From Escherichia coli (lineage in GTDB: Bacteria; Pseudomonadota; Gammaproteobacteria; Enterobacterales; Enterobacteriaceae), in NCBI RefSeq assembly GCF_013122565.1, contig NZ_CP053258.1: a DNA stretch of 64,000 nt. The stretch is one strand, 5' to 3'. Below are positions 5,897 to 27,783 of the stretch, piece after piece (the first letter of the stretch is position 1; every line of letters starts with the position of its first letter). The position numbers and the translations under genes were made by a program. The notes under the pieces are model-generated. The model ran no database searches. It was not told the origin of the DNA and saw nothing but the letters and a program-made list of their open reading frames with translations.

Positions 5897-6976
5897 ATGC
5901 AAACACTTGCCGATTTACTGAATACGATCCCTGCTATCGATCCTGCCGCTATGTCGCGTGCACAACGGCATATTGACGGGTTACTCAAACCTGTTGGTAG
6001 CCTTGGAAGGCTGGAGGCGCTTGCCATACAACTGGCAGGAATGCCGGGGTTGAATGGCATACCGTATGTGGGCAAAAAAGCGGTACTGGTTATGTGTGCC
6101 GATCACGGCGTCTGGGAGGAAGGGGTCGCTATTTCCCCAAAAGAAGTGACAGCCATTCAGGCTGAAAATATGACCCGCGGAACAACCGGCGTGTGTGTGC
6201 TGGCAGCACAAGCGGGCGCTAACGTCCACGTAATTGATGTTGGTATTGATACTGTTGAACCTATCCCCGGGCTTATCAACATGCGTGTCGCACGAGGTAG
6301 CGGCAATATTGCTTCAGCTCCGGCAATGAGTCGCCGTCAGGCTGAAAAGTTGCTTTTGGACGTCATATGTTATACGCGGGAGCTGGCAAAAAACGGTGTC
6401 ACGCTGTTTGGTGTAGGTGAACTGGGGATGGCAAACACGACACCGGCAGCGGCAATAGTCAGCACAATCACTGGCCGGGATCCTGAAGAAGTGGTTGGGA
6501 TTGGCGCAAACCTGCCGACAGATAAACTGGCTAATAAAATTGATGTTGTGCGCCGGGCGATTACGTTGAATCAACCAAATCCGCAGGATGGCGTTGATGT
6601 TCTGGCAAAAGTGGGGGGATTTGATTTGGTCGGAATGGCTGGCGTGATGTTAGGCGCTGCTTCCTGCGGTTTACCCGTGTTGCTGGATGGATTTCTTTCT
6701 TATGCTGCTGCGCTCGCAGCCTGCCAGATGTCTCCTGCAATCAAACCGTATCTCATTCCTTCTCACCTGTCGGCAGAAAAAGGGGCGCGTATAGCGCTGT
6801 CGCATTTGGGGCTGGAGCCTTATCTCAATATGGATATGCGTTTAGGTGAGGGGAGTGGCGCAGCTCTGGCGATGCCCATCATCGAAGCTGCTTGTGCGAT
6901 ATACAACAACATGGGCGAACTTGCTGCCAGTAATATTGTTCTACCGGGGAAAACGTCTTCTGATTTGAACAGTTAA
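5897..6976 (+). CDS. cobT: Nicotinate-nucleotide--dimethylbenzimidazole phosphoribosyltransferase
   Basis: 359 aa, [19 protein letters not shown]; third gene of cobUST. Confidence 0.95.
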
Positions 6977-7037
6977 AAACGAAAAGTCTGATAAAAGCTA
7001 TACTTAACGAACAGCTTTCGCGACTTAGGAAAGGGAC

Positions 7038-7964
7038 ATGATGCGTCGTGTAAATATTCTTTGCTCATTTGCTCTGCTTTTTGCCAGCCATACTAGCCTG
7101 GCGGTAACCTATCCATTACCTCCAGAGGGTAGCCGTTTAGTGGGGCAGTCGCTTACTGTAACTGTTCCTGATCACAATACCCAGCCGCTGGAGACTTTTG
7201 CCGCACAATACGGGCAAGGGTTAAGTAACATGCTTGAAGCGAACCCGGGCGCTGATGTTTTTTTGCCGAAGTCTGGCTCGCAACTCACCATTCCGCAGCA
7301 ACTGATTTTGCCCGCCACTGTTCGTAAAGGGATTGTGGTTAACGTCGCTGAGATGCGTCTTTATTACTACCCGCCAGACAGTAATACTGTGGAAGTCTTT
7401 CCTATTGGTATCGGCCAGGCTGGGCGAGAAACCCCGCGTAACTGGGTGACTACCGTTGAACGTAAACAAGAAGCACCAACCTGGACGCCAACGCCGAACA
7501 CTCGGCGCGAATATGCGAAACGAGGGGAGAGTTTGCCCGCATTTGTTCCTGCGGGGCCCGATAATCCCATGGGGCTGTACGCGATTTATATTGGCAGGTT
7601 GTATGCCATCCATGGTACCAATGCCAATTTTGGTATTGGACTTCGGGTAAGTCAGGGCTGTATTCGTCTGCGCAATGACGATATCAAGTATCTGTTTGAT
7701 AATGTTCCTGTAGGTACTCGTGTGCAAATTATCGACCAGCCAGTAAAATACACCACTGAACCAGATGGCTCGAACTGGCTGGAAGTTCATGAGCCGCTGT
7801 CGCGCAATCGTGCAGAATATGAGTCTGACCGAAAAGTGCCATTGCCTGTAACCCCATCTTTGCGGGCGTTTATCAACGGGCAAGAAGTTGATGTGAATCG
7901 CGCAAATGCTGCGTTGCAACGACGATCGGGAATGCCTGTGAATATCAACCGTAACGGATTTTGA
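7038..7964 (+). CDS. ldtA: L,D-transpeptidase (YkuD domain)
   Basis: 308 aa with signal peptide and catalytic-region motif [20 protein letters not shown]; synteny next to cobT as for erfK/ldtA. Confidence 0.9.
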
Positions 7965-8125
7965 CATTCAAAACGTCTGGTTTTTCGGTCTGAGTAAGCA
8001 TTACGTCATGCAGAACAGGTTGTTTCGAATCATACAAATCATAATTTTCTTCTCATATGCGCATCTCTTATGAGCATAATCGTTATACTCTTCTGATTTA
8101 TACATGTTTGCTGATGACATGATCA

Positions 8126-9103
8126 ATGGAAAAGAGAATGACGAAACAGAAAAAAAACAGCCGCTGGCAGGGTTACGATCCTCGCTACATATACTCGCTC
8201 GTGGTCAGACGTTATTTTGCGGATATGAAAACCAAGATTGAGATTGCAGAGGAGCTTGGCGTTTCCCGCTTTAAAGTTGCCAGATTGATCGATGAGGCGA
8301 TCGAACAGGATTACGTGAGGTTTATCTTCCCTAAGCAGCAAGCGATGGATGAAGAAATCGCCAATAATCTACGGAAAAAATTTCATCTGGAAGATGCAAT
8401 TGTTCTTTCAGTTGCTGAATCCTGGACGACGCAAGAAGAACTCAATCACAAATTGGGTGAAGTCACCGCTGAATATCTTATGCAATCTCTTCATGAAGGT
8501 ATGAAAGTGGGGATCGCCTGGGGACGTGTATTATCAAGCACGGTCAGTAAGTTGAGCAAGTTGCCTCCTTTAGACGTTGTGCAGTTATCTGGCGTACATC
8601 CGGGGATAGAGTTTAGTCAAGGGCCAATAGATCTTATTCATAAGATCGCTGCCATTTCGCAGGGAAAAGCGCACCCAATGTACGTGCCGATGTGGGTCGA
8701 TGACGAAGAGCTTGCTGCCAGACTGGCAGGTGATCCTGCGGTATTAGATACACAGCAATATTACTCACAGTTGGATGTGGTTATCACCGGGATAGGTGAC
8801 TGGAAATCAGGTTCTTCAAGCTTGTATAAAATATTTCCGGATACCTGGTGCGAAGCTTTGTTTCAACAAGATATCGCTGCGGATGTGTGTATCTCGTTGG
8901 TCAACAGGGAAGGGAAGATTCTTCATAGTCCTATTGAACGTCTGGGATTTGGCATTTCGACGGATCAACTACAAAAAGCCAAAAAAGTGATTGGTGTCGC
9001 TGGAGGAGAAGAAAAATATGAAGGCATTCTTGCTTCGCTGAAATCCGGACTTTTGAATGTCTTAATTACTGATTTTGATACGGCCATTAAACTTCTGGAT
9101 TAA
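8126..9103 (+). CDS. SorC/DeoR-family sugar-binding transcriptional regulator
   Basis: 325 aa; N-terminal HTH (IEIAEELGVSRFKVARLI) followed by a sugar-binding-like domain; true start may be 8138 (MTKQKK). Confidence 0.75.
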   Translation: MEKRMTKQKKNSRWQGYDPRYIYSLVVRRYFADMKTKIEIAEELGVSRFKVARLIDEAIEQDYVRFIFPKQQAMDEEIANNLRKKFHLEDAIVLSVAESWTTQEELNHKLGEVTAEYLMQSLHEGMKVGIAWGRVLSSTVSKLSKLPPLDVVQLSGVHPGIEFSQGPIDLIHKIAAISQGKAHPMYVPMWVDDEELAARLAGDPAVLDTQQYYSQLDVVITGIGDWKSGSSSLYKIFPDTWCEALFQQDIAADVCISLVNREGKILHSPIERLGFGISTDQLQKAKKVIGVAGGEEKYEGILASLKSGLLNVLITDFDTAIKLLD

Positions 9104-9154
9104 TAGCCATATCAGTGAAGAAAGGGCAGTACCGCTGATTCTGCCCTTTTAATT

Positions 9155-9613
9155 TCAGGATGCTGCGAGCGTATCCTCTACATATTTAGCCACGTGCGTT
9201 GCAGGTAAATTGCGGCAAGTCTCAACAAAGGCGTTATCCTGAAACAGTGTGAATAAACGACGCAATATCGACATATGTTGATCACTGGTGGCAAATGCCA
9301 GGTTAAACATAATGCTACAATCAACTGTTAAATCAGCATCTTCCATTTGCCCGAAAGTGACATCATTGGCGAAACGAACAATACTGATACTGTTTACATT
9401 TACCAGCGTGTAATCGGCATGGGGAATGGCGATACCCTGACCGTTTGCCATCATTAGTCCTGTCGGATAGCTTTTTTCACGTTCCAGGCAGGCGTCAATG
9501 TATTCTGCAGTGATGTAGCCTTTTTCCAATAATTGCGTACCGGCAAAGGTGATCGCAGTTTGATAGTCACTGATGCTGTTATCAACATCATTCACCAGAA
9601 TTTCAAGTTTCAT
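9155..9613 (-). CDS. PTS EIIA component (fructose/mannitol/galactitol type, EIIA-2)
   Basis: 152 aa with phospho-His region GQGIAIPHADY; last gene of a minus-strand PTS operon. Confidence 0.8.
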   Translation of the reverse strand: MKLEILVNDVDNSISDYQTAITFAGTQLLEKGYITAEYIDACLEREKSYPTGLMMANGQGIAIPHADYTLVNVNSISIVRFANDVTFGQMEDADLTVDCSIMFNLAFATSDQHMSILRRLFTLFQDNAFVETCRNLPATHVAKYVEDTLAAS

Positions 9614-9623
9614 TGCACACCTG

Positions 9624-9908
9624 TTATTTCAACATCTCTTCTTTAACTGCAGCGAAAATCTCATCTTCGCCCAGACCTGTCAGTAATCCAGCGCCAACGA
9701 TGACACGAGTAGTAATGGCCGGGTTATCGAGTTTGGTCGATGAAACCACCAGGTCATAGCTGTTGAAGGTATCGCTGGTGCATGCCATTAACGAAGATTT
9801 ATCGACTTGCGCTTCAATTTTCTCTTCTTTCAGGAAGTCCTGCAGTACAGAGACCATGATGGAAGATGAGGCAATTCCGTTTCCGCAAACTACTAAGATT
9901 TTTTTCAT
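9624..9908 (-). CDS. PTS EIIB component (galactitol/ascorbate-type)
   Basis: 94 aa, MKKILVVCGNGIASSS with the phospho-Cys motif. Confidence 0.8.
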   Translation of the reverse strand: MKKILVVCGNGIASSSIMVSVLQDFLKEEKIEAQVDKSSLMACTSDTFNSYDLVVSSTKLDNPAITTRVIVGAGLLTGLGEDEIFAAVKEEMLK

Positions 9909-9931
9909 TTGATTATTCCTCTGTAAAAGAT

Positions 9932-11302
9932 TTAAAGCGCTTTTTCCAAATCCGTTTCAATCTGGCGACGTGATTTTTGTTTAATTAAGTATCCAATAGA
10001 TAACAAAAGGATACCTGCCATCAAATAGCCAATGATTCCAACATGGCTCAGGGCGGCAAACAGACCAGTAAATGGATTCGCTGACGGGTTAAGTGAAGAG
10101 TACATTACGCTGGCATCCGGGTTTGTACCAAATTTCTGGAAGACTTCGTTGGTAGCCGGTGCCATCCACGACGCAATATACAGACCACCACCGAACAAAA
10201 TGATCGAGGTCACCCAGGTGCGAATAATGTTGCCATTAAAAACAGGTACCATGCAGGCAATAAAAAACACAAACTGAGAGAGGTCACCCAGTGGCATAAC
10301 GCGGTTGCCGGGCAAGATCACGGCGAGGATCACAATGACCGGGATCAGTAATAATGCAGGGGCGATAACTGATGGATGACCCACAATCAGAGCAGTGTCC
10401 ATACCAACAGTGATTTGACGATCCGGGAACCGTTTGACCAGTTTTTTGCGTGCTACGTTGGAAAGCGGAACAAGTCCTTCCATCATGATAGAGGTCATAC
10501 GTGGTAACAGAAGCATGACCGCAGCCAGATACATCCCTAACTGTAGGCTGGCGATTATGGTGTGGTATGGGGATTTCCAGCCATAACCACAAAAGCCCAA
10601 CAAAATACCAATAATAAAACCAACCATAGTTGGATCGCCGAGAATGCCAAACCGTTTTTGAATAGTTTCGGCGGTCACATTCAGATTACGGAAGCCTGGG
10701 ATGCGATCATAAATCCAGTTGAATGGATAAGCGAAAAGTAAGTAGGTATTGGCAACCGGGTGAGAGATCGCAACACCTTTTGGCAGGTTAAAGAATTTTT
10801 CGTTATTTTTAGCACCAAGATCGGCAGCGATCAGCGCCCAGACATGGAATAGCGCGGCGGTCAATGCGCCATACAGGAAACTACCAGAATAGACGCCAAC
10901 AATTGCCCCCATTGACGCATTTTGATGAAGGTTGAAAACATCAACGTTAACACAGTCAGTCAGGCGGGCGACCAGCATTGCAATATTTACCGCAACACAG
11001 AGGGGAATAATGATAGCGCCCATGCTGGAGCCAAATCCCATAACCGCAGTCGCTGCGCCACCAACATCGATGGCACTGAGCGAGGAACCTGTTGCTTCTG
11101 CTAATCCGGTGACTGCCGGTTGCATTTTTTCCAGCATCAGTTTGATGGTCATGGTTAGCGCAATGAAACCAATGCCTACTTTGATGGCAGACGAGATACA
11201 TTCAGAAAGAGGACGGCCAAGTATCTTCATCAGTACCAGGAAGATGACCGGGATAAATATAAAATTTCCCAGATCGTTTATAAATTGCGTGATCAGTTCC
11301 AT
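9932..11302 (-). CDS. PTS EIIC permease, galactitol (GatC) family
   Basis: 456-aa polytopic membrane protein between IIB and the isomerase gene. Confidence 0.8.
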   Translation of the reverse strand: MELITQFINDLGNFIFIPVIFLVLMKILGRPLSECISSAIKVGIGFIALTMTIKLMLEKMQPAVTGLAEATGSSLSAIDVGGAATAVMGFGSSMGAIIIPLCVAVNIAMLVARLTDCVNVDVFNLHQNASMGAIVGVYSGSFLYGALTAALFHVWALIAADLGAKNNEKFFNLPKGVAISHPVANTYLLFAYPFNWIYDRIPGFRNLNVTAETIQKRFGILGDPTMVGFIIGILLGFCGYGWKSPYHTIIASLQLGMYLAAVMLLLPRMTSIMMEGLVPLSNVARKKLVKRFPDRQITVGMDTALIVGHPSVIAPALLLIPVIVILAVILPGNRVMPLGDLSQFVFFIACMVPVFNGNIIRTWVTSIILFGGGLYIASWMAPATNEVFQKFGTNPDASVMYSSLNPSANPFTGLFAALSHVGIIGYLMAGILLLSIGYLIKQKSRRQIETDLEKAL

Positions 11303-11305
11303 ACA

Positions 11306-11842
11306 TTAACCCTCAGATTTTTCATCATCTGGTCGGAAACCCATATTCCAGCGTACATCAGCGGGCTTAACCAGCAATGCATTATCGTTACGTTCAGCTT
11401 CTAGTAAGTTCTTTTTAGAATTTTCTCTGGCGGTGGTGAAGTCGAATGGGTTATCCAACCATGCATCGACAATCATTTTGCTGTATTCGAGATCGTTGAC
11501 CCGGCAACCCAGTCCAATAACTTGTGCGTTATTGCTGAGTCGCGCCCGCTTTGCGGAGTAGGGGTTAGTAACCGCAACGGCTCTTATGCCCCAGTGTTTG
11601 TTGATCTGACAAGTAAAGCCAATGCCAGTCCCACAAATGTAAATTCCCAGACGGCACTCATCGCGTTGAATAATGCCTGCCATTTCGTCGGCCAGACGCG
11701 CGAAGTTATTGACACCTTGTTCCTTACATGTGACGGGATCGTACACGATCTCCATGTTTTTCTCTTCTATGAGGTATTTTTTTATCTCCTCTTTACGTGC
11801 AAAACCTACATCATCGCTTGCGATAGCAATCTTTGTTTTCAT
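11306..11842 (-). CDS. RpiB/LacA/LacB-family sugar-phosphate isomerase with C-terminal extension
   Basis: 178 aa, MKTKIAIASDDVGF...GIYICGTGIGF, typical of ribose-5-P isomerase B / allose-6-P / galactose-6-P isomerases; first gene of the operon. Confidence 0.75.
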   Translation of the reverse strand: MKTKIAIASDDVGFARKEEIKKYLIEEKNMEIVYDPVTCKEQGVNNFARLADEMAGIIQRDECRLGIYICGTGIGFTCQINKHWGIRAVAVTNPYSAKRARLSNNAQVIGLGCRVNDLEYSKMIVDAWLDNPFDFTTARENSKKNLLEAERNDNALLVKPADVRWNMGFRPDDEKSEG

Positions 11843-12190
11843 TTCATTTTGCCTGTCGTTAAGTAACTAAAGCCAAGTATGCTGTTGGTAAATATTGGTT
11901 GTCAATTGAGATCTAAATCACAAAATTTATAACTGATTGATTTTTAATGAATTAAAAACCAATAAAAACAAATAAAAAATAAATTAAGCCAATTAAAACA
12001 AAGTAGGCTTGCACAAGCACTTTGCAATTAATAATAAAAACACATTAAATATCAATCATATATATGAATTGCCAAACATTGTCTTTATTGGGCTTATTTG
12101 TACTTTCTACAGTTAGTGTTTGTTTTTGTTTGCATCATCTGTGCTATGCTTGGCGTTTTCTAAGATGGGCAATAGATTTCAGGAGGAAGG

Positions 12191-12946
12191 ATGTATCTGG
12201 TTGATGAAAGGCGAAAGTTAATACTTGAAGACTTAATGTCGGCAGGTACGGTCTATGTCAGTGATCTTGCACGAAAGTATGAAGTAACGTATGAGACCAT
12301 CAGGAAAGATTTGACCCATCTTGAACAAAAAGGGCTGCTGATCAAAAGCCATGGTGGGGCGACTTTAAAGCAAAGGGCCATAGAGCATCCCTTTCAGGTC
12401 AGGGAAAAAGAAAATAACTCTTATAAGAAGGCGATAGCTCGTAAAGCGCTTGATTTCATTCCGCCTAATAGTTCGATGATTATCGGTACGGGCAGTACCA
12501 CTTTTGAGCTGGCTAACCTGTTATGTATGAAGTCTGGGTTTAAAATCTTCACAGATTCGCTCCCCGTTGCCAGTGTGTTGATTGAATCTGACAATCAGGT
12601 TTTTCTCTTTGGCGGCGAACTGCGTAGAAAGAGTTCCTCAGTGTTTGGGGGGTGGGCGGTATCTATGATCAACGATATACATGTTGATCTCTGTTTCATT
12701 GGAACCGACGGCTTTAGTAACATGACTGGTCCATCGACGCCTTCTTCTTCTGATGCGTTTTTGGATCGCACGATAATTTCGCACTCAGACAAAAAATATA
12801 TCCTCGGTGATTACACCAAGTTTGAGCGCAGCAGTTTGTTTAAGATCTGCGACTGGTCGGAGATCACCGCCCTTATTACCAACGATCATGCCGACAAAGA
12901 GGGGATTGCCGAAGTCGCAAAATACACGTCAGTAATAACCTGTTAG
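12191..12946 (+). CDS. DeoR/GlpR-family transcriptional regulator
   Basis: 251 aa; N-terminal HTH (VYVSDLARKYEVTYETIRKDL) plus DeoR-type sugar-phosphate-binding C-domain; divergent from the first PTS operon. Confidence 0.8.
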   Translation: MYLVDERRKLILEDLMSAGTVYVSDLARKYEVTYETIRKDLTHLEQKGLLIKSHGGATLKQRAIEHPFQVREKENNSYKKAIARKALDFIPPNSSMIIGTGSTTFELANLLCMKSGFKIFTDSLPVASVLIESDNQVFLFGGELRRKSSSVFGGWAVSMINDIHVDLCFIGTDGFSNMTGPSTPSSSDAFLDRTIISHSDKKYILGDYTKFERSSLFKICDWSEITALITNDHADKEGIAEVAKYTSVITC

Positions 12947-13123
12947 AACTCCCTACAACACGCCTTCTCCCTTCGAATCAGCTTTGCCAAATGTAATCAT
13001 TTCCAAATTATCAAGTGAGCATCCATGGTGATGCTTGCTTAGCGCCCTTTATTGAATGCATCCTCTGCATATTGCCAGTTGCACCTCATTTTTTGCGAAG
13101 AAATCATTTTTTGAATCACGGTT

Positions 13124-13263
13124 TGCTCATATGAGCATAAATGCTGTCGCCATTATGTGCTTTTTTGTGATCTGGATTTAATTTCTCAGATCTCGTCATT
13201 TATCCACAGGATCGTTGTGCTATAACTGCTCATATGAATATTGTTCAATGCTCATGTGAGCAT
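13124..13263. promoter_or_regulatory. Candidate operator: palindromic tgctcatatgagca-type sites upstream of the second PTS operon
   Basis: Perfect 14-bp palindrome tgctcatatgagca at 13124-13137; related half-site tgctcatatgaa at 13227-13238 and near-palindrome tgctcatgtgagca at 13250-13263. Confidence 0.45.
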
Positions 13264-13284
13264 TGTGGGGTGAGGGGGAAGGAT

Positions 13285-13728
13285 ATGATATCGATCAGTG
13301 TTGCCGATGGTGCGGGACTACAGAACTACGATGCCGTGCTTGAACATATTTATAACACGCATCGTGAAACGAATACGGTGAAAGAGAGCTGGCTCAATGC
13401 TATGCGTAAACGCGAAGCGGAATATCCGACAGGAATAGAACTGGAAGGTTATTCTATCGCTATACCACACTGTGATAGTGAACATGCGAATCAACCGGCT
13501 ATTTATATCATCCGTCTGCCAGACGCAATACCTGTGAACAGGGCTGATGAAGATGGAATATTGTGGGTCAGACTCGTCGTTAATCTTATTGTTACGGATC
13601 CTGCTGACCAGCTTCGATTGTTAAAGTCATTATTTAACCATCTCCAAAATGAAGAATTTTACCAAAACTTACTGACACTTCCCGTCGATGATGCAAAAGC
13701 ACTTTTTGTGTCCAAAATAATCCAATAG
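13285..13728 (+). CDS. PTS EIIA component (EIIA-2 type)
   Basis: Phospho-His region YSIAIPHCD; start placed at the ATG at 13285 with a gggggaagga RBS; the track ORF starts at 13234 inside the palindromes. Confidence 0.75.
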   Translation: MISISVADGAGLQNYDAVLEHIYNTHRETNTVKESWLNAMRKREAEYPTGIELEGYSIAIPHCDSEHANQPAIYIIRLPDAIPVNRADEDGILWVRLVVNLIVTDPADQLRLLKSLFNHLQNEEFYQNLLTLPVDDAKALFVSKIIQ

Positions 13729-13746
13729 TAAAAACTGGAGTTTATT

Positions 13747-14040
13747 ATGATTAATATTCTTGTTGCTTGTGGTAGCGGTGTCGCTACATCTACGCTTGCT
13801 GCTGATGAAGTGAAGTCAGTATGTGCTGAATATGGTATTACGGCATTTAAAATCAACAAATGCAGTATGGCTGAACTTTCTTCTGAGATGGCTCATGCAG
13901 ATATTGTACTCACAACTAATAACTATAAAGGTGATATTGGGAAACCACATATGAGTGTTGCAGGTTTTGTAACGGGTATTAATGAAGGAGCATTACGCAA
14001 GAAATTAGGAGAGTTATTAACTGAATTAGCAAATAGCTAA
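13747..14040 (+). CDS. PTS EIIB component (galactitol-type)
   Basis: 97 aa, MINILVACGSGVATST phospho-Cys motif. Confidence 0.8.
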   Translation: MINILVACGSGVATSTLAADEVKSVCAEYGITAFKINKCSMAELSSEMAHADIVLTTNNYKGDIGKPHMSVAGFVTGINEGALRKKLGELLTELANS

Positions 14041-14060
14041 ACCTGACAGGAATAATAAAA

Positions 14061-15314
14061 ATGGAAATGTTGAAAAATTTAATGGAAACCATCACCGGAA
14101 TGGGGGCAACTGCAATACTGCCGCTGGTGATATTTATTTTAGGTCTGGTGTTCAGAATGAAACCAGGTGCCGCGATCAAGTCGGGCATCACAGTCGGTAT
14201 TGGTTTTATTGGTTTAGGTTTGGTTGTTGGTTTATTAAATAGTTCATTACAGCCAGCTATTGAGTATTACTCAAAAGTAGGTAGTGGTTTTACGGTTGCA
14301 GATATTGGTTGGCCAGCAGTCGGTGCTGCTGCATGGGTAGCACCTTTTGCCGCATTAGTGATACCAGTTGGCATCGTACTTAACCTGATACTGGTGCGCC
14401 TGAAATTAACCAAAACGTTAAATGTTGATATCTGGAACTATATGCATTTTTTAGTTCCGGGCGCTCTGGCATATTTTGTGTTCGACAGTTTTATCATCGG
14501 CTTCTCTGTCGCGGTGGCTTTGAGTATTGCGGCTCTGTTTATTGGCGATTTGATTGCGCCCAGATGGCAAAAATATTATGGACTCGAGGGAACAACCTGT
14601 ACCACGATGATTCATATCGGCTGGACTCTACCGTTCGCCTGGGTAGTAAATAAAATCATTGATTACATCCCAGGGTTAAATAAGTTAGATGTTGATTTAA
14701 ACAGCGTGCAAAAACGCCTGGGTGTCTTTGGTGAACCTGCAATTATCGGTGTTATCGTTGGCGCATTACTCGGAGTTTTAACGAAACAGGCAATTACCAC
14801 AATTGTTCCCATGGCGATGGGGGTTGCTGGCGTAATGGTATTATTGCCTAAAGTGGTCGGTGTGCTGATGGAAGGTCTTAACCCGATTGGGAAAAGTGCT
14901 AAAGAAATCATGCAAAAACAGATGGGTAAAGATGCAGAATTAAACATCGGTATGGATTGTGCACTGGCGTTGGGGGATCCGGCTACGGTCACCGTGACAG
15001 TAATTACCATTCCTTTAACCATGCTATGTGCTCTGGTATTACCTGATATTAAGATCTTCCCAATCGGCGTATTGATGTCAATTATTTATATGACCACCAT
15101 GACCGTAATGGCGAGCAACGGTAACGTGATTCGTTCGATTATCTCGACCTTGTTATTCTGCGTTGTAGTGATGTATTTAGGCGGTTATGTCGCACCAGGG
15201 GCAACGCAATTTTTAGCTGGAGCCGGTGTAGGCTTGCAAGGACAAGGTACTGATTTTGTATTAACCGGCCCGTGGGAAATTTTAACCTATTGGTTGAGTA
15301 CCGTATTACATTGA
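14061..15314 (+). CDS. PTS EIIC permease, galactitol (GatC) family
   Basis: 417-aa polytopic membrane protein following IIA and IIB. Confidence 0.8.
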   Translation: MEMLKNLMETITGMGATAILPLVIFILGLVFRMKPGAAIKSGITVGIGFIGLGLVVGLLNSSLQPAIEYYSKVGSGFTVADIGWPAVGAAAWVAPFAALVIPVGIVLNLILVRLKLTKTLNVDIWNYMHFLVPGALAYFVFDSFIIGFSVAVALSIAALFIGDLIAPRWQKYYGLEGTTCTTMIHIGWTLPFAWVVNKIIDYIPGLNKLDVDLNSVQKRLGVFGEPAIIGVIVGALLGVLTKQAITTIVPMAMGVAGVMVLLPKVVGVLMEGLNPIGKSAKEIMQKQMGKDAELNIGMDCALALGDPATVTVTVITIPLTMLCALVLPDIKIFPIGVLMSIIYMTTMTVMASNGNVIRSIISTLLFCVVVMYLGGYVAPGATQFLAGAGVGLQGQGTDFVLTGPWEILTYWLSTVLH

Positions 15315-15336
15315 TTTAATAATCTGGAGTTTTAAC

Positions 15337-15981
15337 ATGGCAAAAATATTACCTTCTATATTTGGCGCGGATATTTTACGCCTGAAAGATGAAATTCATT
15401 TTCTGGAAGAGGAACAAACCGAAATATTGCACGTTGATTTAATGGATGGCACTTATGTCAGTAATATTGCCTTTGGCCCAAATCAAATAGCAGCAATGAA
15501 AAAAGCCAGTTCGATGATCTTTGATGTGCACATGATGCTGGCAAATCCTGAGCGACATATTGATGATGTAATCAATACCGGGGCGGAGATGATTTCTGTA
15601 CATTATGAATCGACGCCACATGTACATTATATTATTCAAAAAATCAAAAAAGCGGGTCGCAAAGCAGGTGTTGTGCTTAATCCTGGGACACCTGAATCTG
15701 TCATCGAGTATTTATTAGATGATATTGATTATATATTGTTAATGACAATTAACCCAGGGCAACCAGGCCAGACATTTATTCATAAAAGTCTGGAGAAAAT
15801 CCGTAATACCAAAAAAATGATATCTGGCAGAGATATTCAAATTGAAGTGGATGGTGGCGTTAATCTTGATAATGTAAAACAAGTTAAAGAAGCAGGGGCT
15901 GACCTTATTGTTGTTGGTGGTGCCTTATTTAACAAACAGCCTCGTGAAAGTTATCAGGCATTGAAAATCGCTATTCAGTGA
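15337..15981 (+). CDS. Ribulose-phosphate 3-epimerase family protein (Rpe/AlsE-like ketose-phosphate 3-epimerase)
   Basis: 214 aa with the HVDLMDG signature and TIM-barrel epimerase layout. Confidence 0.8.
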   Translation: MAKILPSIFGADILRLKDEIHFLEEEQTEILHVDLMDGTYVSNIAFGPNQIAAMKKASSMIFDVHMMLANPERHIDDVINTGAEMISVHYESTPHVHYIIQKIKKAGRKAGVVLNPGTPESVIEYLLDDIDYILLMTINPGQPGQTFIHKSLEKIRNTKKMISGRDIQIEVDGGVNLDNVKQVKEAGADLIVVGGALFNKQPRESYQALKIAIQ

Positions 15982-16078
15982 TCACAATCTAAAAATTTCA
16001 CATCCAGTTAAGTGAGGTTTTCGATTTCATATCGGGAGGAAAACCTCAGCTAAAAAATGTCTTTAATGGAGAAAAGTA

Positions 16079-16831
16079 ATGAGTAATTTTGCAGGTAAAG
16101 TGGTTTTAGTTACCGGAGGTGCTCACGGTATTGGCAAAGGGATAGCTAAACAATTTGCTGATCGTGGTGCACATACTGTTATTGTTGACTATAACGAAGA
16201 GAACGGCAAGGCCACTGCAGCAGAGTTAACTTTTGGCGATGTTAAATCGCTGTTTGTTAAAACAGATGTCTCTGATCCACAGGCATTAGTGGATGTACGG
16301 GAAAAAGTATTTGCTACCTTTGGTCGTATTGATGTGTTGATATTAAATGCCGGTGTGGCATTTGCCAATAAAGTTAACAATATTTCTTTTGAGGAATGGA
16401 ATAAGACTATCGCAATTAATTTATCGGGATTATTTAATACCGTTAAGGCGTTTTATGATGATTTCCTGACAAATAAGGGATCTATTGTTTATATCTCATC
16501 GGGATCAGCACTTTCGGGGACTGGAGGCGGTGTGAGTTATCCAGCCAGTAAAGCGGGAGGCGAAGGGTTGATTCGCGGTCTGGCGAAGGAGTTAGGACCA
16601 AAAGGCGTCAATGTTAATGCGATTGCTCCCCGCTTAATAGACACCGGAGAGATGATGCGGGTCAACTATCCGACACAAGCCGATTTAGACGCTGTCCTGG
16701 AAAAAATACCCGTCCGTCGTCTGGGAACTATCGATGATGTGGCTAACCTGGCAATATTTTTGGCAGATAAAGATAACTCTTATATTCAGGGACAAACCAT
16801 TTTAATGGATGGTGGCCGGACTATTGCTTAA
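16079..16831 (+). CDS. Short-chain dehydrogenase/reductase (SDR) family oxidoreductase
   Basis: 250 aa with Rossmann motif TGGAHGIGKG and a YxxxK active-site region (YPASK). Confidence 0.8.
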   Translation: MSNFAGKVVLVTGGAHGIGKGIAKQFADRGAHTVIVDYNEENGKATAAELTFGDVKSLFVKTDVSDPQALVDVREKVFATFGRIDVLILNAGVAFANKVNNISFEEWNKTIAINLSGLFNTVKAFYDDFLTNKGSIVYISSGSALSGTGGGVSYPASKAGGEGLIRGLAKELGPKGVNVNAIAPRLIDTGEMMRVNYPTQADLDAVLEKIPVRRLGTIDDVANLAIFLADKDNSYIQGQTILMDGGRTIA

Positions 16832-16846
16832 AAAGGGAGAGAAAAA

Positions 16847-17407
16847 ATGAGTGTTCAGGAAAATACTATTAATATTCTGCATGAATTAGAGAGTAATGCG
16901 CTGAAGATTGACGATGCTCAGGCTTCACAGTTCATTTCGCAAATCAGAAATGCCCGGCATATTTTTTTGCAGGGAGCTGGTCGCAGTGGCATTGCTATTC
17001 GCGCTTTTGCTAATCGCTTGCTGCATTTAGGTTTTTCAGTAAGCGTTGTGGGAGAAATATCATCACCGCATACTCAACCTGGAGATCTATTAATTATTGG
17101 GTCAGGCAGTGGTGAAACTACCAGTTTGAAAAGTCTGGCACAAAAAGCAGTTGATAGCGGAGTAAACGTCGCTCTGGTAACTATGAAAGCTGATTCAACG
17201 ATCGGTAAATTAGCTCAATCTGTGTTGGTACTACCAGGAAGTGTGAAAGACGATAACAATCGTGTTGCAGGCGCTTTCGCGCAACCAATGGGCTCAGCTT
17301 TTGAGCAACTCTGCTTTATTACTTATGATGCAATTGTTCTGGAGTTGATGTCTGAACTGGGTGAAAGCAGTGCCACAATGTTTACCCGACACGCTGATCT
17401 GGAATGA
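16847..17407 (+). CDS. SIS-domain sugar-phosphate isomerase (6-phospho-3-hexuloisomerase-like)
   Basis: 186 aa; single SIS domain (FLQGAGRSGIA); size and layout resemble HxlB-type PHI. Confidence 0.7.
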   Translation: MSVQENTINILHELESNALKIDDAQASQFISQIRNARHIFLQGAGRSGIAIRAFANRLLHLGFSVSVVGEISSPHTQPGDLLIIGSGSGETTSLKSLAQKAVDSGVNVALVTMKADSTIGKLAQSVLVLPGSVKDDNNRVAGAFAQPMGSAFEQLCFITYDAIVLELMSELGESSATMFTRHADLE

Positions 17408-17431
17408 CTAAAAAGTTGGTAATTAGAAAGC

Positions 17432-17461
17432 AAAAAGCCTGCTAGAAAGCAGGCTTTTTTG
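17432..17461. terminator. Bidirectional rho-independent terminator between the island and asnV
   Basis: Hairpin agcctgc-tagaaa-gcaggct flanked by an A-run upstream and a T-run downstream. Confidence 0.6.
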
Positions 17462-17465
17462 AATT

Positions 17466-17541
17466 TGGCTCCTCTGACTGGACTCGAACCAGTGACATAC
17501 GGATTAACAGTCCGCCGTTCTACCGACTGAACTACAGAGGA
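17466..17541 (-). tRNA. asnV: tRNA-Asn (GUU)
   Basis: 76-nt reverse complement of the E. coli tRNA-Asn sequence; position between ldtA side and nac. Confidence 0.95.
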
Positions 17542-17795
17542 ATCGTGTGAACGGGGCGCATATTAATGGCAGTGCATGGTGATGTCAAAGGGTGAAATGC
17601 ATTTTTTTGTTTGTTTGCTGTCAATTTCAACAAAGTGATGAGATTTCAATCTTATTGGTTATGAACCATCGTGGTGCATACTCTCCTTTTATGGGGCAGG
17701 GGAACGCGATTGCTGATAAAAAGAACCAATGACGAATCTATCATAATCTCTTATTTGACAGTTGGTTAGCTTGTACATCAACGCCAAAATAAAAC

Positions 17796-17811
17796 TGGCA
17801 AGCATCTTGCA
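17796..17811 (+). promoter_or_regulatory. Sigma-54 (-24/-12) promoter of nac
   Basis: tggca-N6-ttgca about 55 nt upstream of the nac ATG; nac is known to be sigma-54/NtrC dependent. Confidence 0.6.
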
Positions 17812-17866
17812 ATCTGGTTGTAAGTAATGGCGGCACTTGGGCCGATTCTTAAAAACCGGAGGCAAC

Positions 17867-18784
17867 ATGAACTTCAGACGCCTGAAATACTTCGTAAAAA
17901 TTGTAGATATTGGTAGCCTGACGCAGGCTGCTGAAGTATTGCATATCGCACAACCAGCGCTCAGCCAGCAGGTTGCCACACTCGAAGGTGAGTTAAATCA
18001 ACAACTTTTGATTCGCACAAAACGGGGCGTTACGCCAACAGACGCCGGAAAAATTCTCTATACCCATGCGCGGGCCATTTTACGTCAGTGTGAGCAGGCC
18101 CAACTGGCGGTGCATAACGTTGGTCAGGCATTATCGGGGCAAGTCTCGATTGGCTTTGCGCCAGGAACCGCTGCGTCATCCATCACCATGCCCTTATTAC
18201 AGGCGGTTCGCGCTGAATTCCCGGAGATCGTTATCTATCTTCATGAAAATAGCGGTGCAGTGCTTAACGAAAAACTGATAAATCACCAACTCGATATGGC
18301 GGTAATTTATGAGCATTCCCCTGTGGCTGGGGTATCCAGTCAGGCTTTGCTGAAAGAAGATCTTTTCCTGGTAGGAACTCAAGATTGCCCGGGGCAAAGC
18401 GTCGATGTTAATGCTATTGCGCAAATGAACCTCTTTCTCCCCAGTGATTACAGTGCTGTTAGACTTCGTGTTGATGAGGCTTTTTCCCTACGGCGGCTCA
18501 CGGCAAAAGTCATTGGTGAAATTGAGTCTATTGCCACGCTTACCGCAGCGATTGCCAGCGGCATGGGCGTTGCAGTATTACCCGAATCGGCCGCGCGTTC
18601 GTTATGTGGCGCAGTAAATGGGTGGATGTCACGCATTACCACGCCTTCCATGAGTCTCTCTTTGTCATTAAATTTACCCGCCAGAGCGAACTTATCGCCA
18701 CAGGCACAGGCAGTGAAAGAGTTGTTAATGTCAGTGATTAGTTCCCCAGTGATGGAAAAAAGGCAGTGGCAATTGGTGAGCTAA
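17867..18784 (+). CDS. nac: Nitrogen assimilation control protein, LysR family
   Basis: Start trimmed to MNFRRLKYFVKIVDIGSLTQAAEVLHIAQPALSQQ. Confidence 0.95.
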   Translation: MNFRRLKYFVKIVDIGSLTQAAEVLHIAQPALSQQVATLEGELNQQLLIRTKRGVTPTDAGKILYTHARAILRQCEQAQLAVHNVGQALSGQVSIGFAPGTAASSITMPLLQAVRAEFPEIVIYLHENSGAVLNEKLINHQLDMAVIYEHSPVAGVSSQALLKEDLFLVGTQDCPGQSVDVNAIAQMNLFLPSDYSAVRLRVDEAFSLRRLTAKVIGEIESIATLTAAIASGMGVAVLPESAARSLCGAVNGWMSRITTPSMSLSLSLNLPARANLSPQAQAVKELLMSVISSPVMEKRQWQLVS

Positions 18785-18885
18785 GCGTTATATCGGGATG
18801 GAATAAGATGCGGGTTTTTATTATTTGTTATGCCGGGCATTAGACTTTAACAATAACGGGAAATCTGAACTGCCCGGAGTTTACC

Positions 18886-19836
18886 GTGAATTTCCAACAA
18901 CTAAAGATAATCCGCGAGGCTGCACGTCAGGATTACAACCTGACAGAGGTTGCGAATATGCTTTTTACCTCACAGTCAGGCGTCAGCCGTCATATTCGAG
19001 AACTGGAGGATGAACTTGGCATCGAAATATTTGTTCGACGAGGTAAGCGACTGCTGGGCATGACTGAACCGGGCAAAGCATTACTGGTCATTGCAGAACG
19101 TATTCTGAATGAAGCCAGTAATGTTCGTCGGCTTGCAGACCTGTTTACCAACGATACGTCTGGCGTTCTCACTATTGCAACGACGCATACTCAGGCACGT
19201 TATAGCCTGCCAGAGGTTATTAAAGCTTTTCGCGAACTTTTCCCGGAGGTTCGGCTCGAGCTAATCCAGGGGACGCCACAGGAAATTGCGACGTTGTTGC
19301 AAAATGGTGAAGCTGATATTGGTATCGCCAGCGAGCGTTTGAGTAATGACCCGCAGCTCGTCGCCTTCCCGTGGTTTCGTTGGCACCATAGTTTGCTTGT
19401 TCCACTCGATCATCCCTTGACGCAAATTACACCATTGACGCTGGAATCAATAGCGAAGTGGCCATTAATCACTTACCGACAGGGTATTACGGGGCGCTCA
19501 CGCATTGATGACGCATTTGCCCGCAAAGGTTTGCTGGCAGATATTGTATTAAGTGCGCAGGATTCTGATGTCATTAAAACCTATGTTGCTCTTGGGCTGG
19601 GGATCGGATTAGTTGCCGAACAATCCAGCGGTGAACAAGAGGAAAAGAATTTAATCCGCCTGGATACGCGGCATCTTTTCGATGCTAATACTGTCTGGTT
19701 GGGACTCAAGCGAGGACAACTTCAGCGTAACTATGTCTGGCGCTTTCTGGAACTTTGTAATGCAGGACTTTCAGTTGAGGATATCAAGCGGCAGGTGATG
19801 GAAAACAGTGAAGAGGAAATTGATTATCAGATATAG
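18886..19836 (+). CDS. cbl: CysB-like LysR-family regulator of sulfonate-sulfur utilisation
   Basis: 316 aa, MNFQQLKIIREAARQDYNLTEVANMLFTSQSGVSRHIRELEDELG. Confidence 0.95.
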   Translation: MNFQQLKIIREAARQDYNLTEVANMLFTSQSGVSRHIRELEDELGIEIFVRRGKRLLGMTEPGKALLVIAERILNEASNVRRLADLFTNDTSGVLTIATTHTQARYSLPEVIKAFRELFPEVRLELIQGTPQEIATLLQNGEADIGIASERLSNDPQLVAFPWFRWHHSLLVPLDHPLTQITPLTLESIAKWPLITYRQGITGRSRIDDAFARKGLLADIVLSAQDSDVIKTYVALGLGIGLVAEQSSGEQEEKNLIRLDTRHLFDANTVWLGLKRGQLQRNYVWRFLELCNAGLSVEDIKRQVMENSEEEIDYQI

Positions 19837-19837
19837 C

Positions 19838-19866
19838 AAAAAGCCCGCTATAAAAGCGGGCTTTTC
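19838..19866. terminator. Bidirectional rho-independent terminator between cbl and asnU
   Basis: Hairpin gcccgct-ataaaa-gcgggc followed by ttttc, preceded by aaaa. Confidence 0.6.
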
Positions 19867-19873
19867 AGAAATT

Positions 19874-19949
19874 TGGCTCCTCTGACTGGACTCGAACCAG
19901 TGACATACGGATTAACAGTCCGCCGTTCTACCGACTGAACTACAGAGGA
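19874..19949 (-). tRNA. asnU: tRNA-Asn (GUU)
   Basis: Identical 76-nt tRNA-Asn sequence (reverse complement). Confidence 0.95.
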
Positions 19950-20109
19950 ATCGCTGTTGAGGCACATCTTAACGGCGAAAAATCTTTTGTCAAACCCGAT
20001 TTTTAAATTTCCCAACTGTTTGCCGTTTCTATCAACAGTTTGTTGCATTTGCAGACAATTTGTTGGCGAAAATCTTTGCAGCTTTGCTGATTCTCCCTCA
20101 TTATTTGAA

Positions 20110-21597: not shown

Positions 21598-21697
21598 ACG
21601 ACAAAATGCAGATTATTTCAGCAAACGATTTCAAATTTAAAAAACAGGCTTTGACATTGTGGGTGGGCATCGCTAATATTCGCCTCGTTCTCACGAT

Positions 21698-21773
21698 TCC
21701 TCTGTAGTTCAGTCGGTAGAACGGCGGACTGTTAATCCGTATGTCACTGGTTCGAGTCCAGTCAGAGGAGCCA
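21698..21773 (+). tRNA. asnW: tRNA-Asn (GUU)
   Basis: TCCTCTGTAGTTCAGTCGGTAGAACGGCGGACTGTTAATCCG...GAGCCA read directly on the plus strand. Confidence 0.95.
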
Positions 21774-21834
21774 AATTTTAGTTTTGAGACATCTCTATGA
21801 GTCTCAAGGCAGTTAAAAAATAAAAATTATTTTT

Positions 21835-21871
21835 ACCCGGTTAGCTTGTAAAAAAGTGACCGGGTTTTTTG
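21835..21871 (+). terminator. Rho-independent terminator downstream of asnW
   Basis: cccggt...gtgaccggg hairpin followed by tttttt. Confidence 0.55.
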
Positions 21872-24737: not shown

Positions 24738-24838
24738 GTGTGTCTCCTGTTCCATACAATTACCGCACATCCGATAGTATGTCACAGGAATGTGAAACAA
24801 AAGTGTAAGGCGAAGATCGGATGATCTTCGCCAGGCTA

Positions 24839-27762: not shown

Positions 27763-27783
27763 TTAAGAAATTATAACGGAAAA

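Follow-up and report, generated by a model that had tools for sequence, protein, structure and literature searches.

A two-module PTS island between ldtA and asnV in Escherichia coli and its putative polyol-catabolic pathway

We propose that the interval between ldtA and the tRNA-Asn gene asnV, in a 64,000-nt stretch of Escherichia coli DNA (the window), is an accessory carbohydrate-catabolic island of two PTS modules acquired together, and that a polyol would be converted to fructose 6-phosphate by its SDR-family dehydrogenase, epimerase and PHI-type isomerase. For this explanation as a whole, including a mechanism deduced from sequence, we estimate a probability of about 0.55. The island consists of two modules of recognizable gene families that recur across phyla and are accompanied by palindromic operator motifs, and its enzyme set fits no described pathway.

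Boundaries, gene content and history of the island

In K-12, ldtA and asnV are separated by a spacer of only 55 bp, in agreement with the arrangement given in the first-pass annotation, which had placed 12 extra genes in about 9.5 kb at this site. The window has 12 ORFs between ldtA and asnV, matching the annotated gene set of a near-identical RefSeq locus, and junction alignment assigned 9,474 bp of island-specific DNA to the place of 37 bp of the K-12 spacer. The left junction lies within the final 24 nt of ldtA, so that the C-terminus of LdtA is unlike that of K-12, and the right junction lies 7 nt past the stop codon of the hxlB-like gene. The GC content of the island is 42.4%, compared with 48.0% in the remaining window, and is the lowest of any 9.5-kb stretch there. 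All 12 ORFs are intact and full-length compared with their orthologues. The features are as follows.

7038..7964, plus strand: ldtA (flank); its last 24 nt (7941-7964) are island-type, unlike K-12
7941..17414, no strand: island-specific DNA, 9,474 bp (junction alignment, sequence and GC content)
8050..8076, plus strand: two degenerate copies of TGCTCA-N2-TGAGCA upstream of the SorC-type gene; candidate autoregulatory operator
8126..9103, plus strand: SorC-family sugar-binding regulator by family match (start may be 8138, as in RefSeq); putative regulator of module 2
9155..9613, minus strand: module 1 EIIA (PTS_EIIA_2)
9624..9908, minus strand: module 1 EIIB (PTS_IIB)
9932..11302, minus strand: module 1 EIIC, Gat family
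11306..11842, minus strand: RpiB/LacAB-family sugar-phosphate isomerase, 40% identical to K-12 RpiB
11876..11925, minus strand: conserved module 1 promoter TTGACA-18-CATACT with ACCAA repeats
Just upstream of the module 1 promoter, minus strand: CRP-like site TGTGA-N6-TCTCA
11951-12056, minus strand: further AAAAACCAAT-type repeats near the module 1 promoter
12191..12946, plus strand: DeoR/GlpR-family regulator, divergent from module 1; putative regulator of module 1
13124..13262, plus strand: three TGCTCA-N2-TGAGCA copies (13124, 13227, 13249) upstream of module 2; candidate SorC operators
13163-13184, plus strand: weak CRP-like half-site upstream of module 2
13285..13728, plus strand: module 2 EIIA, closest to GatA (39% identical); most likely starts here rather than at 13234
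13747..14040, plus strand: module 2 EIIB (PTS_IIB)
14061..15314, plus strand: module 2 EIIC, Gat family
15337..15981, plus strand: RPE-type ketose-phosphate 3-epimerase
16079..16831, plus strand: SDR-family dehydrogenase
16847..17407, plus strand: PHI/HxlB-type 6-phospho-3-hexuloisomerase homologue
17466-17541, minus strand: asnV tRNA-Asn (flank), with its terminator at 17432-17459, both intact

Profile searches recovered the expected families for all 12 proteins (E = 1e-7 to 1e-105), and the gene order and strands given in the first-pass annotation stood as well. That annotation had treated the genes as a single set; the genes are as it described, but they form two separable modules. The Pfam assignments of an identically arranged Providencia locus are Sugar-bind, PTS_EIIA_2, PTS_IIB, EIIC-GAT, LacAB_rpiB, DeoR, Ribul_P_3_epim, adh_short and SIS. 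The PTS phosphorylation residues are present, with the IPH motif in both EIIAs and Cys8 in both EIIBs.

The position near asnV had suggested an island site at the 3' end of a tRNA gene; the proximity is real, but the island lies 51-58 bp downstream and is not integrated into the tRNA. As had been noted from the sequence, there is no integrase or transposase among the island ORFs, and no tRNA-derived direct repeat was found at the island boundary. The Rfam scan matched only the tRNA. We rejected an integrase-mediated, tRNA-integrated mobile island on these grounds, together with the intact tRNA and terminator and the boundary approximately 51-58 bp beyond the tRNA.

The island is carried by approximately 225 of the 5,426 complete E. 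coli genomes (about 4%), always at the ldtA-asnV site, and its copies share 97-98% identity. In E. coli its rate of divergence equals that of the flanking DNA, which indicates an old resident; it behaves as a vertically inherited segment and not as a recently inserted element. Recent transfer from Klebsiella plasmids was rejected, the nucleotide identity being merely 70-76%, and an apparent E. coli plasmid copy (CP088875.1) proved to be chromosomal backbone with the order cobUST-ldtA-island-nac. Cluster copies in other species are found on conjugative plasmids or beside integrases. Module 1 of K. oxytoca, of Citrobacter and of a K. pneumoniae plasmid still contains a second PHI gene; at this position E. 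coli shows a gap of 51 bp, and it has apparently lost module 1's own PHI copy.

The core IIA-IIB-IIC-Rpe-SDR-SIS was present in 31 of the 34 loci with an SDR orthologue, from Gammaproteobacteria, Firmicutes and Actinobacteria; the other three were contig-truncated or decayed copies. Module 1 is optional and present in a subset of loci only. About two thirds of the loci have module 2 without an RpiB-like gene, and Streptococcus gallolyticus has module 1 alone, with nothing else of the cluster within 8 kb on either side. Both units have spread among gut, insect and plant bacteria of three phyla.

Enzymes, candidate operators and the proposed route

The EIICs of modules 1 and 2 match TIGR00827 (E = 1e-104 and 4e-96), and their Providencia orthologues carry PF03611. 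At 351 and 323 bits, both fall short of the GatC-specific cut-off of 542 bits, so they are Gat-family members rather than GatC orthologues. With separate EIIC-GAT, PTS_EIIA_2 with the active-site His and PTS_IIB with an N-terminal Cys, the transporters belong to the Gat-family PTS (TC 4.A.5).

The epimerase passes TIGR01163 (235 bits; cut-off 212.6) and falls below the cut-off of the AlsE model (178 vs. 271 bits); it scores 194 bits to the RPE 2FLI compared with 125 bits to AlsE 3CT7. AlsE-type epimerases are reportedly told by a one-residue-longer loop after beta-strand 8. In the alignment this loop reads GGA-LF or GGY-LF in the island copies, a short form like that of Rpe (GSA-IF), whereas AlsE has GTSGLF; an AlsE-type epimerase was ruled out by loop length and scores. 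Residues H32, D34, M36, D37, H65, M67, M136 and D172 are invariant in the alignment with E. coli Rpe. By its equivalog model, metal/catalytic His and Asp residues and Met cushions, the enzyme is a putative RPE.

No protein of the cluster is better conserved than the dehydrogenase, with 67-93% identity across three phyla; its orthologues extend down to 67% identity and the next SDRs reach at most 41%. A search of the PDB with its sequence returned generic FabG-like relatives only and no close characterized relative. The SIS-domain protein, approximately 53% identical to B. subtilis YckF/HxlB, passes the PHI model TIGR03127 (210 bits; cut-off 160), as does every SIS protein tested (192-213 vs. 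160 bits), including module 1 paralogues and copies that share just 33-37% identity with that of E. coli. Four reference PHIs have 39 invariant columns in common, and 19 of these, among them the polar and glycine positions of the shared motifs, show 97-100% conservation across 34 island-type copies. Almost all variants retain the PHI gene or, in its place, a distant PHI homologue. Neither the island nor the inspected flanks of related loci contain a 3-hexulose-6-phosphate synthase gene, and a PHI homologue without this synthase is an unusual feature.

All five matches to TGCTCA-N2-TGAGCA in the window fall in the two promoter regions. Of 14 SorC-bearing loci, 13 have two or three copies in the stretch from the SorC or DeoR gene to module 2 and the 14th has one, and the palindrome is absent from all six PRD-regulated loci tested; Gram-positive versions of the cluster use PRD/Mga-type activators. 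Conservation from E. coli to Streptococcus was likewise seen for the promoter and repeats on the DeoR side. Generic scans for promoters and terminators gave no enrichment over shuffled sequences, and only the match coinciding with the conserved promoter was used. Judging from this conservation, the candidate operators probably link SorC with module 2 and DeoR with module 1. The SorC-type protein would repress module 2 and its own gene through the TGCTCA-N2-TGAGCA operators, the DeoR protein would control module 1 through ACCAAT-type repeats over its promoter, and CRP may add catabolite control.

In the proposed route, the Gat-family EIIA, EIIB and EIIC of module 2 would take up and phosphorylate a sugar alcohol, oxidation of the polyol phosphate by the SDR would yield a ketose phosphate, the epimerase would invert the carbon adjoining the carbonyl, and the PHI-type isomerase would shift the carbonyl to give fructose 6-phosphate. 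The geometry in which each enzyme finds canonical use would be C3 oxidation of a hexitol 6-phosphate, C4 epimerization of the 3-hexulose 6-phosphate and the PHI reaction; the epimerization would be canonical because the keto-to-phosphate spacing is that of ribulose 5-phosphate. Module 1 would import a related free sugar, the phosphate of which would be handled by the RpiB-like and PHI-type isomerases, and E. coli presumably uses the PHI of module 2 for this step. The confirmed families, the conserved six-gene core, the passes of the PHI model and the RPE-type epimerase support the scheme. So does the hexose setting of an Anaerostipes variant, where the operon that holds the Rpe-SDR-PHI trio also has GatD-like, GatY-like and 1-phosphofructokinase genes. 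Fructose 6-phosphate is our best inference for the module 2 product, with a pentose or tetrose phosphate less likely. The linear SDR-epimerase-PHI order is one of several chemically consistent orders, and we know of no described precedent for the C3-oxidation route.

Other explanations and significance

A pentose phosphate would suit the RPE-type pocket and the near-RpiB isomerase just as well. The island might serve pentitols, with ribitol, D-arabitol or xylitol entering through module 2, the SDR producing ribulose 5-phosphate or xylulose 5-phosphate, a genuine RPE, and the RpiB-like protein acting as ribose-5-phosphate isomerase, all leading to the pentose phosphate pathway, which the Gat-family pentitol operons of Listeria reportedly feed. 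The epimerase's RPE equivalog score and short loop, and the RpiB-like protein being closest to RpiB, argue for this explanation, and Gat-family PTS systems for D-arabitol have been described (PMC6685057). We nevertheless consider it unlikely, as it assigns no role to the widely retained PHI-type isomerase, the dehydrogenase is an SDR rather than the MDR type of known pentitol-phosphate dehydrogenases, and a housekeeping Rpe would render the tightly conserved Rpe-SDR pair redundant. Still less probable is a tetritol island, with erythritol or threitol entering through module 2 and erythrulose through module 1, both reaching erythrose 4-phosphate by a dehydrogenase, a racemase/epimerase, a keto-shift isomerase and an RpiB-family isomerase, a functional parallel to the reported Brucella EryB/C/H/I and M. 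smegmatis LerI/DerI routes. It is the sole scheme that needs all four enzyme chemistries; it would let the RpiB-like and PHI-like pair of module 1 be self-sufficient, as in Streptococcus, and would explain how the module 2 PHI replaces that of module 1. Indeed, a module 1 standing alone with only these two isomerases is hard to square with a hexose route to fructose 6-phosphate, and a tetrulose route fits it better. Known erythrulose-4-phosphate isomerases are of the RpiB family, and the match of the island protein to the corresponding NCBIfam model is weak (99.7 bits; cut-off 240). Against it, the PHI homologue looks canonical for a C6 substrate and the RPE homologue for a C5 one, the RpiB-like gene is missing from some two thirds of the loci that have module 2, homology to the Brucella enzymes is confined to the RpiB family, and we know of no Gat-family PTS for a C4 compound.

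The annotation of K-12 RpiB as allose-6-phosphate isomerase, and the membership of AlsE in the epimerase family, raise the prospect of D-allose entering through module 1, with the RpiB-like protein as its isomerase, and allitol, D-altritol or D-allulose through module 2, the two branches meeting at D-allulose 6-phosphate, which would be converted to fructose 6-phosphate. Such a pairing of a polyol with its aldose suits the two-module layout; this route is improbable, given an epimerase that lacks AlsE's longer loop and scores far better to RPE, and a PHI without a clear role. Most doubtful is a cryptic, decaying remnant with no present function in E. coli. Loss of the second PHI gene, erosion of the island by IS3 and an integrase in one strain, and a DeoR segment more divergent than the remaining island would agree with decay, but the 12 full-length ORFs, the retained phosphorylation residues and maintenance in some 225 genomes at 97-98% identity do not.

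Returning to the conserved enzymes that a Gat-family PTS would supply, we regard it as possible, at somewhat less than even odds, that the trio of SDR, PHI-type isomerase and RPE-type epimerase constitutes an undescribed catabolic pathway spread horizontally among gut, insect-gut and plant-associated bacteria of three phyla. It would run from a rare hexitol through a 3-ketohexose 6-phosphate to fructose 6-phosphate, or be a PTS-based analogue of the erythritol pathway. If so, 6-phospho-3-hexuloisomerase would gain a physiological role independent of formaldehyde fixation.

Uncharacterized PTS clusters are common in the E. coli pan-genome. The earlier view that this one had no assigned substrate held, as full-text literature searches (asnV/ldtA, PHI, polyol, RefSeq accession and L. 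plantarum topics) found no substrate or functional study of the island genes. The only mentions of the locus are mere listings in two genome comparisons, of bovine STEC O156:H25/O182:H25 (PMC5359238) and of the OVR-A region of Pantoea ananatis (PMC5817063). The island does not touch a long-standing open question. Identification of its substrates would widen what particular strains of E. coli, Klebsiella, Enterococcus, L. plantarum and bee-gut symbionts are known to feed on by one or two nutrients, with rare polyols now used as sweeteners and plant polyols as candidates. It would also reveal a new use for a PHI-family enzyme, explain why a cluster whose dehydrogenase is 80-90% conserved crosses phyla, and make the paired regulators and conserved candidate operators ready-made inducible switches.

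Comparison with known systems

A copy of gat, sgc, srl or als was rejected, and the absence of a match to gat, srl and als asserted in the first-pass annotation was upheld, since identity between the island proteins and Gat, Sgc, Srl, Als, RpiB and Rpe of K-12 reaches only 26-41%. Like the island, gat and sgc of E. coli (TC 4.A.5) combine separate EIIA, EIIB and EIIC of the same PTS family with a DeoR-type regulator in polyol-type catabolic systems, and sgc also has an RPE-family gene; however, protein identity is 31-39%. Only the PTS parts and the regulator match the K-12 gat locus in tblastn, and in place of a GatD-type Zn dehydrogenase and GatYZ aldolase the island has an SDR, a PHI homologue and an RpiB-like isomerase. 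The srl/gut (sorbitol) and sor (L-sorbose) systems share with it a PTS, an SDR polyol-phosphate dehydrogenase, a SIS-domain isomerase (GutQ) and a DeoR or SorC regulator, but their PTS families differ, the island SDR is 26% identical to SrlD, and its SIS protein is of the PHI rather than the KdsD/GutQ type.

Set alongside by description, the D-arabitol/xylitol PTS operons of Listeria monocytogenes and Bacillus methanolicus likewise join a Gat-family PTS with Rpe and RpiB copies, and the PRD/Mga-type activators of Gram-positive versions of the cluster are a further shared trait. These operons have MDR-type dehydrogenases and a transketolase, and to our knowledge no PHI role has been described in them, whereas the island dehydrogenase is an SDR and there is no transketolase among the 12 genes. 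The erythritol/threitol pathways of Brucella and Mycobacterium also use a dehydrogenase, a carbonyl-adjacent epimerase, a keto-shift isomerase and an RpiB-family aldose-ketose isomerase; they have a kinase instead of a PTS, and their enzymes are non-homologous bar the RpiB family, so the resemblance is one of analogy only. With the ribulose monophosphate pathway (HxlA/HxlB) the island shares a bona fide PHI-family member, but it lacks HPS, and its PHI is linked to a PTS and a dehydrogenase in non-methylotrophs.

Boundaries, composition and residence of the island

The interval between ldtA (7038-7964, plus strand) and the tRNA-Asn gene asnV holds 12 ORFs in the window, and the same 12 genes are annotated between cobUST-ldtA and tRNA-Asn-nac-cbl in PapRG-06-5, which is the closest match among complete E. 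coli genomes (98.3% identity across 11.5 kb). In K-12 MG1655, the ldtA-asnV gap is only 55 bp; thus, both the K-12-type arrangement given in the first-pass annotation and its count of 12 additional genes were borne out. Junction alignment and inspection of the raw sequence placed the island-specific DNA at 7941-17414 (9,474 bp), in place of 37 bp present in K-12. On the left, the junction falls inside the final 24 nt of ldtA, so that the end of LdtA differs in island carriers, and the right junction is located 7 nt past the stop codon of the final island gene. Two features next to the right junction are intact in the window:

17432-17459, terminator of asnV
17466-17541, minus strand, tRNA-Asn gene asnV

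An imperfect direct repeat of 19 nt (15 of 19 identical) was observed, with one copy immediately within either island boundary: the 3' end of ldtA has ACGACGATCGGGAATGCCT (7919-7937), and that of the hxlB-like gene has ACGCTGATCTGGAATGACT (17391-17409). The recombination that gave rise to the island, or that deleted it, could have left this mark, although by a rough estimate such a repeat is barely more than chance would give.

The GC content of the island is 42.4%, versus 48.0% for the rest of the window, and is the lowest of any 9.5-kb stretch there. As had been noticed beforehand, no integrase or transposase ORF was found among the window ORFs of the island, and its far boundary showed no copy of the tRNA 3' end. 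Thus, the island is foreign by composition, yet it is not a classical tRNA-integrated element. Four tRNA-Asn genes (17466, 19874, 21698, and 36080) and a tRNA-Ser gene (37147) are present in 17466-37236, and asn-tRNA genes are well-known island sites. Since window 17984-64000 is collinear with PapRG-06-5, whose annotation has no integrase or island at any of these genes, the asn-tRNA sites are empty in the window.

Compared with PapRG-06-5, identity is 98.5-99.1% in the island and 98.6-98.7% in the flanks. The island has therefore diverged in step with the chromosome, and is a long-established resident of some E. coli lineages. The segment 11843-12946 (the DeoR gene and its AT-rich upstream spacer) is lower than both the remaining island and the flanks, at 96.1% identity with 4 gaps, pointing to locally relaxed constraint or to a patch of recombination.

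A presence/absence search across 5,426 complete E. coli genomes found at least 80% of the island in 225-226, and the count was unchanged with or without the ldtA and nac flanks in the query, indicating that every copy lies at one site. E. coli CFSAN064036 retains only a fragment of the SorC-type regulator gene, cut by an IS3-family element, with the remaining island absent; a tyrosine-integrase pseudogene follows the fragment and adjoins tRNA-Asn. asnV also serves other elements as a site, and these can erode the island.

Gene families, modules and their spread

NCBIfam searches of the island proteins, together with the Pfam families recorded for an identically ordered Providencia locus, confirmed every family proposed in the first-pass annotation. 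The island encodes a SorC-type sugar-binding regulator, a DeoR/GlpR regulator, two each of EIIA (PTS_EIIA_2), EIIB (PTS_IIB), and EIIC (EIIC-GAT), one RpiB/LacAB-family isomerase, one SDR, a ribulose-phosphate 3-epimerase (RPE) family protein (235 bits; RPE equivalog cut-off 212.6), and an SIS protein scoring 210 bits against the cut-off of 160 of the 6-phospho-3-hexuloisomerase (PHI/HxlB) model. The residues phosphorylated in PTS proteins (His of IPH and Cys8) are present. The island proteins share no more than 26-41% identity with the Gat, Sgc, Srl, Als, RpiB, and Rpe proteins of K-12; therefore, duplication of a known E. coli operon was rejected, and the gene set is indeed distinct from gat, srl, and als, as previously proposed.

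A scan with one genome per species revealed a tight SDR orthologue group of 33 loci at 67-93% identity, with the next match at no more than 41%, and the same pattern was obtained in a search of 5.8 billion proteins.

Carriers of the SDR orthologue group
Enterobacterales: Enterobacter, Citrobacter, Klebsiella, Providencia, Pantoea, Erwinia, Brenneria, Rahnella, and others
Further carriers: Vibrio cholerae; bee-gut Gilliamella
Also: Enterococcus, Paenibacillus, bee-gut Lactobacillus, Breznakia
Lachnospiraceae: Anaerostipes, Enterocloster, Hespellia
Actinobacteria: one metagenome-assembled genome

We mapped the 12 island proteins onto 34 loci (the 33 from the SDR scan and the V. cholerae locus). 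The six-gene set IIA-IIB-IIC-epimerase-SDR-PHI (module 2) was observed in 31 loci; two of the three exceptions were contig-truncated and one was decayed. The block of DeoR and RpiB-like-IIC-IIB-IIA (module 1) was restricted to nine loci of other species. Its RpiB-like protein forms a separate tight group (64-99% identity) that reaches Streptococcus, Tetragenococcus, one Staphylococcus plasmid, and Lactiplantibacillus plantarum, in which it is common and both modules are present. In S. gallolyticus, module 1 and a PHI gene are surrounded by housekeeping genes, and module 2 is absent within 8 kb. The SorC-type gene is directly upstream of module 2 in module-2-only Enterobacterales and in V. cholerae, and the DeoR gene is divergent from module 1 in all cases; thus, the E. 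coli order is SorC, an inversely oriented insert of module 1 and DeoR, and module 2. Gram-positive versions have PRD/Mga-type activators in place of SorC. The SDR is far more conserved than its neighbours, with a median identity in Firmicutes and Actinobacteria of 79%, whereas the epimerase, PHI, and PTS components reach 56-62%.

Vehicles by which the cluster could move were also found. Among 36 plasmid records that carry it, 10 are typed as conjugative and 35 come from true plasmids (Klebsiella 15, Pantoea 15, Enterobacter 3, Erwinia 1, and Duffyella 1); the remaining record, labelled E. coli, carries chromosomal backbone. This record (CP088875.1, pF17EC0245-1, 393 kb) reads cobUST-ldtA-island-nac-cbl-yeeO-yeeN-amn-shiA, and is probably a chromosomal segment wrongly assigned as a plasmid. 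A Klebsiella plasmid as recent donor was rejected, because its copy shares only 70-76% DNA identity with the E. coli island. The V. cholerae contig (11967-14209 of that locus) carries both modules and a Cof-type phosphatase gene beside a tyrosine integrase, which adjoins a Dus-family (tRNA-dihydrouridine synthase) gene. This locus resembles the dusA-integrating genomic islands described in the literature. An integrase fragment was also observed near the Pantoea locus.

Candidate operators and promoter elements

The palindrome TGCTCATATGAGCA has five matches in the 64-kb window at up to three mismatches, a total not above chance; the informative part is their clustering, since all five fall either ahead of the SorC-type gene (8050-8076) or ahead of module 2 (13124-13262). 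Among 14 SorC-bearing loci of other genera, 13 have two or three copies, approximately 120 bp apart, in the interval that separates module 2 from the SorC or DeoR gene, and the remaining one (Providencia) has a single copy. None was found in the six PRD-regulated loci tested. This pattern of positions links the SorC-type protein to module 2, and the candidate operator appears to tie the two together despite their 4-kb separation in E. coli.

Two conserved elements were predicted at module 1:

11905-11876, minus strand, module 1 promoter TTGACA-18-CATACT, carrying ACCAA(T/C) repeats
11904-11925, CRP-like site TGTGA-N6-TCTCA just upstream of this promoter, conserved in Gammaproteobacteria only

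The -35 box and the ACCAA(T/C) repeats, which are candidate DeoR operators, are kept from E. coli to Enterococcus and Streptococcus, and Gram-positive module 1 promoters have a cre-like sequence downstream instead of the CRP-like site.

Proposed catabolic route and comparison with known systems

The PTS hands over its substrate in phosphorylated form, and SDRs within PTS operons such as SrlD and SorD are polyol-phosphate dehydrogenases; by analogy, the island SDR would most simply be an enzyme of this kind. The epimerase is RPE-like rather than AlsE-like: it scores 194 bits to S. pyogenes RPE versus 125 bits to E. coli AlsE, and its loop following beta-strand 8 is one residue shorter than that of AlsE (GGA-LF versus GTSGLF). 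The AlsE loop reportedly lengthens the pocket for hexulose-6-P (Chan et al. 2008); that paper is cited in PMC12216980. The scores and the short loop indicate that the epimerase would expect the keto-to-phosphate spacing of ribulose-5-P. Judged by its sequence, the SIS protein is a canonical PHI: it is approximately 53% identical to B. subtilis YckF/HxlB, and the PHI model is passed by all SIS variants, including copies 33-37% identical to that of E. coli and the module-1 paralogues. Furthermore, four reference PHIs share 39 invariant columns, and in 34 island-type copies 19 of these columns, polar and glycine residues of the common motifs among them, show 97-100% conservation. To our knowledge, the only reaction known for the PHI family converts D-arabino-3-hexulose-6-P to fructose-6-P, and no hexulose-phosphate synthase accompanied PHI in any locus inspected.

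We propose that module 2 would oxidize a hexitol-6-P at C3, epimerize the resulting 3-hexulose-6-P at C4, where the carbonyl-to-phosphate spacing equals that of ribulose-5-P, and yield fructose-6-P by the PHI reaction, so that each enzyme would work in its canonical geometry. An Anaerostipes variant points to a hexose context, as its epimerase-SDR-PHI trio shares one operon with GatD-like, 1-phosphofructokinase, and GatY-like genes. In these metagenome-assembled loci (approximately 6100-14100), the trio and the GatD-like Zn dehydrogenase occur with one PTS and also with a D-psicose-3-epimerase-like TIM-barrel protein and the GatY-like aldolase; this may be a merged hexitol operon and could help to identify the substrate. 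Module 1 has no dehydrogenase and would thus import a free sugar. A second PHI gene lies between the SorC gene and the module 1 EIIA gene in K. oxytoca, Citrobacter, and a conjugative IncF K. pneumoniae plasmid, and E. coli has only 51 bp at this position. Since E. coli could lose this copy, the two PHIs would share an intermediate or use very similar ones, and the pathways would converge. Overall, we give a probability of roughly 55% to a polyol and a related sugar converging on the PHI step, with fructose-6-P as the likeliest exit. The weak point of the fructose-6-P scheme is Streptococcus, where the RpiB-like and PHI-like proteins alone offer no obvious route from a hexose to fructose-6-P.

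Pentitols feeding the pentose phosphate pathway would be consistent with RPE and RpiB, but would leave a near-universal PHI without a role, and we regard this reading as unlikely, though worth keeping in view. More doubtful is a route from a tetritol or erythrulose to erythrose-4-P, by analogy with the pathways of Brucella and Mycobacterium; it would use all four chemistries and explain a self-sufficient module 1, but it fits poorly with the canonical-looking RPE and PHI pockets and would need an external RpiB in about two thirds of the loci, those without module 1. The non-AlsE character of the epimerase leaves little probability for an allose, allitol, or allulose island, and intact ORFs with long-term retention make a cryptic remnant very improbable.

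The locus has been recorded before without functional study. It appears as a gene list between erfK and nac in bovine STEC O156:H25/O182:H25 and is missing in O156:H8 (PMC5359238), and for Pantoea ananatis, module 2 is tabulated among the genes of OVR-A, a plasmid-borne "onion virulence region" (PMC5817063); neither paper proposes a function. PMC5996543 reports a frequency for an hxlB-like gene which, set against the approximately 4% of strains with the island, means that it must be another hxlB-like gene. PTS clusters without a characterised function are common across the E. coli pan-genome, and no question of long standing hangs on this island. In kind it is ordinary, a cluster for polyol/sugar catabolism built on a Gat-family PTS, with repressors of the SorC and DeoR types; what is out of the ordinary is its set of SDR, RPE-type, and PHI-type enzymes, with PHI lacking its synthase partner, and its conservation across phyla.
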